Below, piece after piece: positions 3,615 to 45,580 of a stretch of 52,070 bases of DNA; positions within the stretch are counted from its first letter, which is position 1, and every line of letters begins with the position of its first letter. Both the position numbers and the translations under genes were made by a program. The stretch is from the NCBI GenBank assembly GCA_001938485.1, contig MQRK01170126.1:1-52070 (forward strand). Reading direction: 5' to 3'. The DNA is from Girardia tigrina (lineage: Eukaryota). The notes under the pieces were generated by a model. That model saw only the letters and a list, made by a program, of their open reading frames with translations. It was not told the origin of the DNA and ran no database searches.

Positions 3615-4020
3615 TATTGAGTCTTGTGAACGCAAGTTTAGTATTTCGAAAATATAATTTGATTAAAGCTTTTTTAATACAACTATTGGACATGTTTCGA
3701 TGTTTATATATATCATCATCAGCAATTTTCTATTGAATTGTTTGAATAATACAATTTTTCACAATTTTAATAAATACAATTTACTCATCCATTTCAAAAG
3801 ATGAGTTTTCTGTTCTACAAAAGGGTTTTGATTCACATTACGAACGACAGTTTTGTGAATCTCTACTAATAATACACTACAACCCATCAATTAACATTCA
3901 GANNNNNNNNNNNNNNNNNNNNNNNNNNNNNNNNNNNNNNNNNNNNNNNNNNGATGTATGTAAACATCGAAACATGTCCAATAGTTGTATAAAAAAAGCT
4001 TTAATCAAATTATATTTTCG

Positions 4021-5618: not shown

Positions 5619-6438
5619 TTGGGTTAGCCAAAAAGTCATTGCGTTTTTTACTAAAATATTTATTATCAAAAAATGACATGGATGCACAAATATTTTTACA
5701 CGATATACTGTTCATTATTTTCAATCACTTTCTTCCACCTTTCCGGTAGCTTCATTATTCCTGATTCATAAAAACCTTTGCCTTTGTCAGCAAAAAAGCC
5801 GTCTAGGAACGATTTGATGTCATCATCACTGGTGAATGTTTTTCTGTTTAAGGAATTCTGCAGTGATCTAAATAAATTTGACCAAATGAATTTCTTTCAG
5901 TTCATGTGGTAACCACATATCGAGTTTACTGACAAATCCAAGTTTCTTTAAATGACTTCCAACACTTGATTTTGATATTTCCAGAGTCTCTGCAACTTCT
6001 CTTGTCGTCATATGTGGATTAGATTTGATCAGTGCTGTTATTTTGTCGCCATCAACTTGAACTGGTCGACCGGAGCGTGGTGCATCTTTCAGATGAAATT
6101 TTTCAGAACGAAATTTAGAAAAACAGTATTGACACTGTCGAAGTTTTAAGGAGTCACTACCATATACAAAACATATTTTCTTATGAGCTTGCACAGTGGT
6201 TTTCCATTTGCGAAAATAATGCAACAAAACATGACGAATATGTTCATTTTGATTTTCCATTTCGAATTGACGGTAAAGTAATAAATTAAAACAAAATCAA
6301 TTAATATTTTGTATAAATAGTCTGAAAATTAAGGTTTCAGAATATATAATTGAATTTAAATTTTATCACATCGTTTTATATTTTCAAGCTTTTTATTAGG
6401 ACGTACTCAAAAACGCAATGACTTTTTGACCAACCCAA
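5619..6438 (-). mobile_element. mariner (mellifera-subfamily-like), both TIRs present, catalytic core deleted
   Basis: TA|ttgggttagccaaaaagtcattgcgttttt ... aaaaacgcaatgactttttgaccaacccaa|TA. ORF 5868-6260 has the HTH region, RSGRP and WLPHEL; sequence then jumps directly to the LFRSLQNS 3' part. Confidence 0.95.
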
Positions 6439-29589: not shown

Positions 29590-30170
29590 CGTGGTGCGTT
29601 CAATAAGTACCGGTCAGACGAAGGAAACGATTTCCGTTTTTACAGCACAAAAAGCTTAACAGATGTTGGCATCATTTCTAAACATAATTTTCATTTCGCT
29701 CGACACACTTCTTCCTACGAATAATCCACTCAGAAAACGCTTTTTTAAAAAAATTTGGGTGGCATTCAGCAAAGAAATCTTCCACGGCAACCTTCAAATT
29801 GTCTTTAAATCCAATTTCGATGCATCTTAAATGCTTTTTGAGGTGTCTGAAGATGTGAAATTCGATTAGTACCAAATCTAGGCTGTATGCTGGTTGATGC
29901 CCAAGCACTAAGCCAGCACCTGTCTGAGAAATGCCCGATGTGTTCACTGCAATTTAATAATTTAAACCATAATGATGTGTTATTCTGCTTCCGTCTCTTT
30001 TTTTTGGTGGTTGCCACGAGTTTGCTGTATTAGGTAGTGTTGATGGTTATGCTTTTATCCGCAAAATCTATGAAAATATCACCTTTATGATCCAAGAAAA
30101 TGGAAACAGTATCGCTCGTCCATGACTTGTCCACGTTTGCATCTTTAAAGATGGCTTTTTTGGACCTCTA
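29590..30170 (-). mobile_element. mariner 3' half (irritans-like TIR), decayed
   Basis: TA|cgtggtgcgttcaataagtacc TIR. ORF 29678-29947 reads HQPAYSLDLVLIEFHIFRHLKKHLR...FFKKAFSEWIIRRKKCVERNENYV; upstream remnant TVSIFLDHKGDIFIDF. Confidence 0.85.
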
Positions 30171-36600: not shown

Positions 36601-36762
36601 AATGTTGGAATAAATAATTTATAAGTTATGCATCAATTTTTAAAATTATTGGGTTTTGTGAGAGGCATTAATAATTTAATCGGATAATTTAGCAATTAAT
36701 TTCCAATCAAGTGACTCATCAACTTTTTGGAAAGTGTTTACGTGAAATGGTATTACATAAGT

Positions 36763-37184
36763 GCACCTCAACTCCTGTCGAGTATTAAGCCTGAGGCTTT
36801 ATAGGAGGCCTGGGACGCTGATGGTTCTCAACAAGCACTAACCCAATGTTGGGGTCGAGCATGCTTTAGTTTCGCCTGTCCGAAGATGCAACGACGTCAT
36901 TACAACACCCTTCACCGGGATTTATTCATCCCAGATCATGAAGATGCAATCCAACCATCGACAGCGAGGTCACTACTCCCCACTGCCTTCACACCCAGAT
37001 TGTAAAGCGAAGCCTAGTGAATGGATTGCTGGCCCATTCCTGAATACGATACATTGCCGGCTGTTTCCTCAATGAAAGGCTAGCTTTCGGGCACTTTAGC
37101 CTAGAGACGGAATCAAACTCTTCATCTAGTTTCTCAGGGATACTACGTAGAAGTATGCCCACTGGCCGCACAGATGATCCCTGT
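36763..37184 (-). mobile_element. 422-bp GC-rich non-autonomous retroposon (RTE-like 5' UTR) with a 10-bp TSD
   Basis: Direct repeat ttacataagt at 36753-36762 and 37185-37194; abrupt GC step; no TIRs; HDV-like fold at the 5' end. Confidence 0.7.
37089..37183 (-). ncRNA. HDV-like self-cleaving ribozyme (candidate)
   Basis: Minus strand: P1 CAGGGAT/ATCCCTG, P2 GGGCAT/GTGCCC, P3 ACT/AGT, L3 TCTACGT, P1.1 CT/AG, P4 CTAGA/TCTAG, J4/2 GCTAAA (putative catalytic C at 37099). All elements occur in canonical nested double-pseudoknot order. Confidence 0.75.
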
Positions 37185-37499
37185 TTACATAAGTAATTAC
37201 ATAATCACCATTAAACAGATAGTATCAGGAATATCTTGTGATAACGGATATTCAGTCATAATATATGGCCTTAGTAAAATTTATAAATAAATTTAATTTA
37301 TAAAAAACACTTGCCTTTTTAAAACACTGATTTTTTTATTCTTATTTTTATTTATTTTATTTTATAATTTTTATCATTATATTATCCAATTAATAAAATA
37401 TTAAAAAAATTAATTAAAGAAATATGTATCTTCATATTGTAGTACAGAGTAGATAAAGATCGTTTTAATAAGTTCCCTACTCTTCTATGAATTCTTTTT

Positions 37500-40483: not shown

Positions 40484-41214
40484 TTGGGTTGACCAAAAAG
40501 TCATTGCGTTTTTTACTAAAATATTTATTATCAAAAAATTACATGGATGCACAAATATTTTTACATGATATACGGTCTATTATTTTCAATCACTTTCTTC
40601 CGCCTTTCCGGTAGCTTCATTATTCCTGATTCATAAAAACCTTTGGCTTTGTCAGCAAAAAAGCCGTCTAGGAAAGATTTGGTGTCATCATCACTGGCGA
40701 ATGTTTTTCTGTTTAAGGAATTCTGCAGTGATCTAAATAAGTGAAAATCCGATGGGGCCAAGTCTGGGAGAATACGGTGGTTGCGGCAAAACTTCCCAAC
40801 CCAGTGATAAGAGTTTCTGGCGAGTGGTCAAACTTGTTTGCGGTCTTGCGTTATCATGCTGAATTACTACTCCTTTTCGATTTGCCAATTCAGGACGTTC
40901 CTGTTGAATTGAATGAGCCAATTTCTCCAGCTGACCACAATATCTGTCTGAATTGATGGTTTCATTCCTCAGAAGGAGTTCAAAAAACACAATTTCTTTA
41001 AAATCCCACCAGACGGAAAGCATAACCTTCTTTTGGTGAATTTCTGCTTTTGGGATCGTTTTGGCAGGCTCACCACGTTTTGTCCACGATCGTCGGCCTT
41101 CCACATTGTTGTAAACAATACATTTTTCGTCACCCGTAATCAAGCGCTTCAAAAATGGATCACTTTGTTCTCGCTTCAAAAGGGAATCGCAAATTGTTAA
41201 ATTTTGTCAAATGC
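40484..41214 (-). mobile_element. 3' half of the mellifera-like mariner with DD34D catalytic domain (frameshifted)
   Basis: TA|ttgggttgaccaaaaagtcattgcg TIR; ITGDEK, HDNARP, PPYSP/(D)LAPSDFHLFRSLQNSL (ORFs 40733-41179 and 40561-40761). The 3' end is near-identical to 5619-5875. Confidence 0.95.
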
Positions 41215-43007: not shown

Positions 43008-43641
43008 TTAGGTCGGGAAGTATGAAATTTGTAGAATTAAAGTCAAAGATTATTAATAATTTACATAACGAATTATTATGTCATGCATAAGATCAGGTAC
43101 CCATACCCAAGAGCGGCTGCTTGTTGAAGCCATTTCAAAAAATATTTGGTGGACGAAAATCTTTAAATTCTTCAAAACCATTTTTTCGACATCTTCGAAA
43201 TTGAATCTTTTTTCCTATATAAAGTTTTTCAAATGGAGCATGATACAAAAGATACAACTAAAGTTCCCGTTGTTCTGTCCCGGTCTTAAGTGCAGTATCT
43301 GATTTTGGATTGTGGTGGATCAAGATGTGAGTTAAATTTTTTTACAAAGTTCGGCTGTTTTTCTTTGAGTTTTCGCATCATATTTTCCAAGGGATTGCAG
43401 TAGACATCTGCCGTCATCGACGAAACAGGTTTAAAGAAGTAATAATATATTAAACCTGTAGCAGACCACCAAACCCTCACCGTCATTTTCTTTTGATGAA
43501 TGTTGTACATTGAACTGTGCTTTCGTGCTTCATTCATATTGCAGTAAAACAAAAAACTGAAAAAAATGTTAAATCATTGTTAAATATACTTATTTAAATT
43601 AATTGTAATCATGCCTACAAATTTTATACTTGACAATCTAA
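43008..43641 (-). mobile_element. mariner (cecropia-like), both TIRs present, large internal deletions
   Basis: TA|ttaggtcgggaagtatgaaatttgtag ... ctacaaattttatacttgacaatctaa|TA; IHQKKMTVRVWWSATGLIYYYF..MTADVYCN.LENM (43286-43552). Confidence 0.9.
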
Positions 43642-45085: not shown

Positions 45086-45580
45086 AAGCCCAAAGATCCG
45101 AATAATCCTACAAACACTCAAGGTTCATGGTACAATAAATACAATGAGAATTGTTGGGTCTACTTTGACAGATTGAGATACGAATATTCCGAGGGATATA
45201 TCACTTGTGTTTTCTCTCAATATGGAGAAACCGCCAATTTGAATCGCATTCGCGACCGACACACCAGTCGATCGAAGGGATTTTGTTTCATTTGCAAACT
45301 ATTAAATAACAAACTACCGGCTCTCGATAAAGATGAGAAGGACGTGTAGAAGATGTTCTATGAGCATGGATGAGGACCCGAACACGATGAAATGTTAAAA
45401 CAATTACAAATTGAATCGGGTGAAATCAAATGGCGATTGGATTTGGAGGTCGATAAGTTCCAATTGAAGAAGAAAGAGCAGGGTGAGCTTCGATTATTTT
45501 CCCCCCGCAGTCCACCCCCCAACTCTGGGACGCCGCCACCGCGCTGCGCCCGCTCTACCACCAACACCGGCAGTATATAA
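45086..45580 (+). pseudogene. RBMX2: Intronless disabled RBMX2/Snu17(Ist3)-like RRM fragment, in frame with an upstream Q-rich ORF (44801-45085)
   Basis: 45125-45295 translates to [57 protein letters not shown], versus remembered human RBMX2 [57 protein letters not shown]. The RRM C-terminal part is deleted; in-frame stops at 45083, 45347 and 45371. Confidence 0.8.

Follow-up and report, generated by a model that had tools for sequence, protein, structure and literature searches.

The window, by which we mean the whole 52,070-nt stretch of Girardia tigrina DNA analysed here, contains one complete member of an abundant family of non-coding retroposons. The element is real and its kind is known, but the system to which it belongs has an unusual targeting variant. 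The family carries a predicted HDV-like ribozyme head, is likely mobilised in trans by a zinc-finger retrotransposon of the RTE group, and, like that partner, inserts preferentially at sites of the form GTG-N10-T|AC. As a single cycle in which ribozyme-headed RNAs are moved by the partner's protein to this common target, we put the reading at a probability of roughly 0.78.

The element occupies 36763-37183 of the window on the minus strand, is 421 nt long and begins with a C at 37183. Its GC content is 49.6%, compared with 23.1% and 21.6% in the flanks. An exact 10-bp duplication, TTACATAAGT, lies at 36753-36762 and 37185-37194, and the 422 bp between its two copies consist of the element and one extra A (37184), which is either non-templated or a mutated 11th base of the duplication. 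The 422-bp GC-rich island and the perfect 10-bp duplication of the original prediction are both present in the sequence, and its statement that no credible ORF is present also held, as the element is ORF-less in the window. The features are as follows.

37206..37208, minus strand: the motif's GTG, at -14 to -12 relative to the first base of the duplication
37196-37195, minus strand: TT completing the GTG-N10-T|AC motif
37185..37194, minus strand: 5' copy of the target-site duplication (ACTTATGTAA, element strand)
37184, minus strand: additional A separating the duplication from the element, at position -1 of the predicted cleavage site
37089..37183, minus strand: predicted HDV-like ribozyme head, from its helices and their covariation across families
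37159..37168, minus strand: A-box-like stretch CGGCCAGTGG in J1/2, a lead only
37108..37118, minus strand: degenerate B-box/T-loop-like stretch in the P4 loop
37099, minus strand: predicted catalytic C
36809..37088, minus strand: non-coding body, common to the sister family SINE-B
36763..36808, minus strand: 3' tail homologous to the end of the RTE partners' 3' UTR, with an AGCC/GGCT hairpin
36753..36762, minus strand: 3' copy of the target-site duplication
36662..36752, strand not assigned: host dispersed repeat entered by the window copy, resuming after 37194

Two further claims about the body fared less well. The remainder of the element had been called hairpin-rich, and whole-element folding proved no better than that of shuffles (z = 0.21). 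A VPGLL.KP-like coding remnant had been read near the 3' end; the bases concerned align to the partners' non-coding 3' UTR. The 3' end of the element has neither a poly(A) nor a microsatellite tail. A DNA transposon or Helitron was considered and rejected, with no terminal inverted repeats seen by eye and a duplication that varies from 7 to 14 bp. The host repeat is itself dispersed (1332 first-look candidates in the genome), and its paralogues at 11 loci besides the window are without the element; in one of these (L312) a single duplication-like unit leads directly into sequence that matches the right flank of the window.

When the element was searched against its own genome, 1948 first-look candidates were obtained. 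All 40 candidates that were scored match, 39 of them being other copies at 92-98%, and the copies studied here are the best BLAST matches rather than a random sample. A duplication is present in 59 of the 71 full-length SINE-A and SINE-B copies (SINE-A being the window family), with a length of 7-14 bp and a mode of 11 bp (32/59). The duplications differ between copies, which is the outcome that the proposed search for copies with different target sites had anticipated, and the description of a full-length, non-autonomous, ribozyme-headed element was supported by a full-length multi-copy family with an HDV-like head and an RTE-group partner in the same genome. SINE-B has its head in common with SINE-A and is 69% alike over the whole element, and SINE-C and further variants likewise carry the same head. 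Contigs of two metatranscriptome runs and of two runs of guessed type hold the family, such contigs being of a kind that cannot show transcription, strand or ends.

Several observations concern the other families. SINE-C (L236-L245; L051 from 5075) is non-coding and longer than 600 nt, with the same head, a different 3' end, a tRNA T-arm-like hairpin in P4 and many T runs, and it sits at both the 28S and the Penelope sites described below. Three loci (L357, L361 and L369) hold another non-coding family at the 28S site, which starts GGGACAC or GGGGTAC and has a distant complementary strand; this start is possibly a rearranged HDV-like head. At two SINE loci (L026 and L138) the 3' flank is the Penelope target while the 5' flank is not, which may reflect either recombination or 3' transduction.

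The head is predicted to fold into a nested double pseudoknot with P1, P1.1, P2, P3 and P4 in the right order, and every helix that had been proposed was found at its position on the minus strand. P1 pairs 37183-37177 with 37141-37135, its first pair being C-G, and is followed by J1/2 (37176-37161); P2 pairs 37160-37155 with 37094-37089, and P3-L3-P3' lies at 37154-37142. P4 spans 37129-37101, with its base formed by 37129-37125 and 37105-37101, and leads into the J4/2 sequence GCTAA (37100-37096). In P1.1 a CT within L3, which reads TCTACGT, pairs with the AG at 37134-37133. J4/2 contains a candidate catalytic C at 37099, the equivalent of C75, and L3 contains U20 and G25. The HDV descriptor search that had been suggested returned one match in the 52-kb window, at the head of the element; the same descriptor, which was written after the sequence had been seen, matched none of 5000 resamples of the element's composition and matched once in 60 resampled windows.

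The companion suggestion of a search with Infernal HDV-family models gave no match for the window copy at E ≤ 10, and no Rfam HDV model matches the SINE head. The head of the partner family RTE-1 does score, at E 0.0047 and 32.9 bits against Rfam HDV_ribozyme, under the gathering score of 50, and at E 0.036 against HDV-F-prausnitzii (Rfam RF02682), again below gathering. The consensus of the latter resembles the SINE head in its L3 (UCUACGU), the AG after P1 (which makes P1.1 a U-A and a C-G pair), the GCUAA junction and a non-wobble first pair; it differs in that its first pair is G-C rather than C-G, and the SINE head obtains no score against the model.

Covariation had been put forward as a check, and P1, P1.1 and P2 do covary across the sister families. 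The commonest forms of P1, by family, are CAGGGAT/ATCCCTG, CGGGGAT/ATCCCCG, GGGATAC/GTATCCT and GGGATCT/GGATCCT. P1.1 is CT/AG in the SINE heads and CC/GG in the RTE heads (and, by eye, in L321), while P2 varies in the further SINE variants yet stays paired, also by eye. Because the search pattern for heads demanded that L3, P3 and P1' be intact, pairing within a family is there partly by construction, and it is the helix changes between families that constitute the evidence. The predicted catalytic C is kept in 50 of the 51 SINE-A heads in which J4/2 was found and in 23/23, 7/8, 28/28 and 28/28 heads of the other families. In RTE-2 heads, P3 has a T-T mismatch at its base.

The original prediction had attached two caveats to the head, and each can be made more precise. 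The U in L3 where C22 is typical is real, and this U22 pairs with A38 as part of CT/AG, as in the HDV-F-prausnitzii consensus. Of the two registers offered for P1, the 7-bp one with C1-G37 is right, since the copies begin at that C, and the 6-bp register with a first A-U pair falls away. C1-G37 is fixed in three SINE families (47/52, 18/23 and 9/9), and the whole 5' strand of P1 is kept in 46 of 52 SINE-A heads. The G1:U37 wobble is thus absent from the SINE heads, which have C-G, and the RTE heads have G-T or A-T. In the available part of the text, a change to either base of G1:U37 lowers activity and A at -1 ranks below U and C (PMC1874588), and a G1A change in CPEB3 is given as leaving very low activity in the section at hand of another study (PMC8233481). 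The fixed C1-G37 pair counts against activity of the SINE heads, and the window copy also has A at -1, whereas HDV cleavage is favoured by G1:U37 and by a pyrimidine at -1 (PMC1874588, PMC8233481).

The junctions offer a complementary view. For R2, an excerpt from earlier work has 5' junctions tracking the cleavage site (PMC3774820). No base intervenes between duplication and +1 in 44 of 59 copies here, the remainder having mostly T. T at -1 is found in 29/46 SINE-A, 14/21 RTE-1 and 12/22 RTE-2 junctions, and as it is equally common before RTE heads, it is a product of the junction and lies outside the element. In our judgement the SINE family heads probably cleave themselves, and the predicted ribozyme of the window copy may well do so, though with somewhat less assurance. 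The SINE families offer a naturally occurring system in which to ask how an HDV-like core copes with C-G as its first pair.

The head could also be mainly an internal Pol III promoter joined to a weak or leader-trimming ribozyme, so that the transcription start sets the 5' end while RTE mobilisation and targeting are unchanged. A strict B-box-like motif, mostly at +63, is present in 27/52 SINE-A and 9/9 SINE-C heads and in 0/57 RTE heads and 24 of 20,000 shuffles, and an A-like motif in 50/52 SINE-A heads. TTTT is absent from 26/28 SINE-A and 17/18 SINE-B full copies, although a quarter of shuffles likewise lack it, and a promoter would explain why C1-G37 is tolerated. Yet the window copy is not among the 27 SINE-A heads with an intact GGTTCGATTCC-type B box, its own being degenerate; SINE-B is abundant without both box motifs (1/23 each); and SINE-C, with the best B box, has TTTT runs in 8/8 copies. 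As for a tRNA-derived SINE2 head, box-like motifs are confined to SINE-A and SINE-C and ARAGORN finds no tRNA gene in five loci. In addition, the catalytic C and P1.1 remain conserved, and the copies start with C, an unusual Pol III start that counts against this account. We consider it improbable, and keep to a head that is predicted to act as a ribozyme.

The integration sites were tallied with the duplication as anchor, and the 59 SINE copies fall into 31 at unique sites, 19 in Penelope, 7 stacked and 2 in 28S. No single target thus holds most of them, about half of the sampled copies being at unique sites, and the targeting of the element is a preference. The context of the unique sites is A-rich, with GTG at -14 to -12; T predominates at -11 and -2, and a further T at -1 precedes the AC. 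Across the 31 unique sites GTG is at -14 to -12 in 24, T at -1 in 30 and AC in the upstream copy in 30; the whole GTG-N10-T|AC motif is present in 23 of 31, as against 9 sites in 103,138 window positions. The window copy fits this motif. Among the 8 unique sites without it in full, L236 is a misfiled stacked site and the 7-bp duplication of L149 is doubtful. On the bottom strand the motif would be equivalent to a nick at GT^AA.

The 3' junction begins with AC in 54/57 SINE-A, 25/25 SINE-B and 34/43 RTE copies. Two copies (L014 and L286) have AC at the 3' junction and an upstream copy without it, a pattern that is expected if the AC comes from the RNA. Five RTE-1 heads (L110, L111, L119, L125 and L126) start with A, giving an A-U first pair, and tend to GTG-N11-AT, which is seen in 4 of 21 RTE-1 heads; they may form a subfamily whose RNA ends differently at the 3' side. 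Neither a target-specific RTE nor a description of this family was found in the literature searched (Repbase lay outside that search).

An autonomous RTE partner had been proposed as something to look for, and probable RTE-group elements encoding APE, RT and C2H2 fingers were found in the same genome. Longer elements with an HDV-like head of their own lie downstream of several copies. At one locus (L051) the order is a SINE, a complete 3.86-kb element, a SINE and a SINE-C, separated by ACCACAGGGAT, inside 28S. This 3.86-kb element has APE, RT and three C-terminal C2H2 fingers, the third read by eye, and one stop codon; another partner copy has an open frame of 1241 codons. At least two partner families (RTE-1 and RTE-2) are present, which are about 40% identical in the C-terminal part and have a common 3' tail and target. 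As in RTE elements, APE and RT are encoded in one ORF, and the partner lacks both an ORF1 and an RNase H. Two loci (L328 and L292) represent further RTE families at the Penelope site, with a new head that has a G-C first pair and a third C-terminal type.

The partner RT groups with P0004 and P0005 at support 100, inside a 99-support group that holds DUF6451-bearing proteins, in a quick tree of 76 rows with no named references, among which no CR1, Jockey, R1 or Vingi rows are known to be present. DUF6451 is an RTE marker; the domain was looked for in the partner protein and was not detected. The partner likely belongs to the RTE group, a placement that comes from this quick tree without named references. 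The partner is 27% alike to P0006 over 902 columns. Among the best 150 representatives, 14 have matches that extend at least to profile position 1120, so that the partner lineage is wider than this genome. A metagenome scan for the lineage gave 80 loci at 20-34% identity, none of them close.

Only the head and the last ~50 nt of the SINE resemble the partners. The SINE tail aligns with the RTE-1 and RTE-2 tails at scores reached by 0-1 of 2000 shuffles, though the tails are only ~70% alike, and in its hairpin an A-U pair of one group is replaced by G-C in the other when SINE and RTE rows are compared (7 rows). The head aligns with that of RTE-2 at a score that none of 2000 shuffles reaches, and weakly with that of RTE-1 (11/2000). 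Both ends are thus homologous to autonomous LINEs of the same genome, the head to RTE-2 and the tail to RTE-1 and RTE-2. The ~245-nt body gave no match to the two RTE copies tested (104/200 and 6/200 shuffles reach the score), and the internally deleted derivative that had been supposed is, in the strict sense, not supported. Elements beside the 3'-end matches were only short or partly masked copies, with no long element ending in the SINE tail.

A different driver would be another element, such as a restriction-like-endonuclease element of the NeSL clade that targets the 28S region. In the section of PMC4640811 that treats it, LIN9_SM inserts within a few bases of the 28S site used here, and the ~70% likeness of the tails leaves room for another source. 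However, the same part of that paper gives LIN9_SM the opposite orientation and a T-run junction, whereas the SINE agrees with the RTE families in orientation and exact junction, in the length of the duplication and in tail and head fold, whether at 28S, in Penelope or at unique sites. Such a driver is extremely unlikely, and the SINE is likely mobilised in trans by the zinc-finger RTE-group retrotransposon.

Two targets are used again and again at one fixed base. The first lies in an RT-bearing element, read as Penelope-like, at the codons for the YIG motif in a domain of GIY-YIG type. This label has as its basis ESM Atlas (0.97, GIY-YIG clusters, a lead), an RT-bearing homologue and the YIG motif itself; Pfam did not detect GIY-YIG on the Penelope frames. 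With copies ranked by the upstream flank alone, and with the query and four duplicate rows dropped, this one base is filled in 16 of 27 distinct non-query copies, empty in 10 and unclear in 1. At the second target, in 28S, a recognisable family member is present in 11 of 25 loci, again with the query and four duplicates dropped. None of the 25 reads through intact: the others are masked, end with their contig or are interrupted by unrelated-family sequence, and these loci may be dispersed 28S fragments rather than working rDNA. Several 28S fragments (L348-L350, L353-L355, L366 and L371-L374) are broken at the site or a few bases upstream of it and could be LIN9-like antisense insertions.

The upstream motif survives insertion, so that new copies stack at the same site, and 7 of 59 SINE copies lie directly behind another family member, with four elements in a row at L051.

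These hot spots might be thought to reflect passive amplification and assembly bias, with only the short motif being recognised. Four SINE-A copies (L007, L008, L009 and L021) have the same Penelope duplication and flanks, no intact 28S occurs among the 25 loci, and empty identical repeats collapse in short-read assemblies; the assembly used here is fragmented and may have merged Penelope or rDNA copies that are empty and identical. But the families or 5' truncation points differ among the 16 filled Penelope sites, which therefore stem from independent insertions. Of the 10 empty copies, a single one carries an insertion anywhere else within the following 260 nt, and ~250,000 motif sites genome-wide (a rough figure, scaled from the motif density of the window) against ~20,000 first-look candidates fall far below the 59% occupancy of this base. 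Passive amplification is thus a highly improbable account, and a real preference for the two hot spots is the reading retained.

These observations can be arranged into a cycle. A donor copy would be transcribed by read-through from its host, and the ribozyme would cut just before +1 and set the 5' end, as copies starting at +1 suggest. The RTE protein would bind the common 3' tail, which the homology points to, and, from the junctions, would recognise the GTG about one helical turn upstream and nick the bottom strand at a T^A step, possibly with a role for the C2H2 fingers in targeting. The RNA end ...AC could then anneal to the freed ...GT-3' and prime reverse transcription, and a second nick, mostly 11 nt away by the observed duplication lengths, would give the duplication. 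Donors within Penelope or 28S would carry the target at their 3' end, further favouring both sites. More tentatively, and at slightly less than even odds, the zinc-finger RTE would have evolved sequence-directed integration independently of R1 and Tx1, with hot spots at a conserved 28S site and at the catalytic YIG codons of a rival Penelope endonuclease, which it would disable. Its ribozyme-headed SINEs would then feed a loop that reinforces itself: insertion preserves the target, copies stack, and the ribozyme of the next copy cuts the joint transcript, leaving an upstream RNA that ends in the 11-nt target and is thereby led back to the same site.

Ribozyme-headed non-autonomous derivatives of LINEs are already known from the accessible portions of three reports (PMC3414825, PMC5786205, PMC6765202). 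SIDEs are alike in being non-autonomous, with an HDV-like head, the partner's 3' end and the partner's site with a duplication. They are rare and confined to 28S, whereas candidate copies of the present family number in the thousands, its partner is of the RTE group, its motif sites are dispersed, Penelope is a hot spot, and its body is unlike the two RTE copies compared. In the pertinent sections of PMC5786205, RTE is among the clades with ribozyme heads and bipartite derivatives, and ORF-less RTE derivatives such as RTESINE1/2, MAR4_MD, WALLSI3 and Bov-A, as well as the trypanosomatid NARTc/RIME, likewise join LINE 5' and 3' ends. The 3' part of such derivatives includes a poly(A) or microsatellite tail, and only R1, R2 and R4 are given as target-specific in those sections; here there is no such tail, and the target motif is strong.

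The closest precedent for the motif is the split insertion signature of the RTE clade, which in the portions at hand of PMC6007223 and PMC13295347 is a T-stretch ~10 nt upstream of a duplication that starts with T. In both, recognition takes place upstream, one helical turn from the nick, and the bases with which the duplication opens are linked to the 3' end of the RNA. Here, however, the upstream element is a GTG whose distance is fixed, the duplication opens with AC, and the motif is specific enough to produce hot spots and stacking. According to excerpts of PMC4640811 and PMC5035012, the APE elements with target specificity are R1 and Tx1, and the former paper assigns the majority of the target-specific families reported to the early-branched, Tx1 and R1 groups. 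R1 and Tx1 elements and planarian NeSL elements (LIN9/24/26_SM; PMC4640811, same excerpt) are alike in inserting into 28S and other repeats. LIN9_SM is there NeSL-related with antisense insertion, while the partner here has a single ORF, APE, RT, C-terminal C2H2 fingers and an RTE-type grouping.

RTE-1-based gene writers are described as random integrators in the available part of PMC13708176. Given a compact single-ORF protein of the RTE group whose motif is defined and which has a hot spot in 28S, one can test which part sets the site (endonuclease, C-terminal fingers or RNA 3' end), and the Penelope hot spot may be one retroelement repeatedly interrupting the endonuclease gene of another.

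The window also contains other repeats. A piece of the same Penelope-like element, from downstream of the target site, lies at 3785-3902 (94%). Transposase fragments that appear Mariner-like by their motifs lie at 5868-6296, 29678-29953, 40561-41206 and 43286-43573, and a short frame at 45086-45349 resembles a fragment of an RRM protein.
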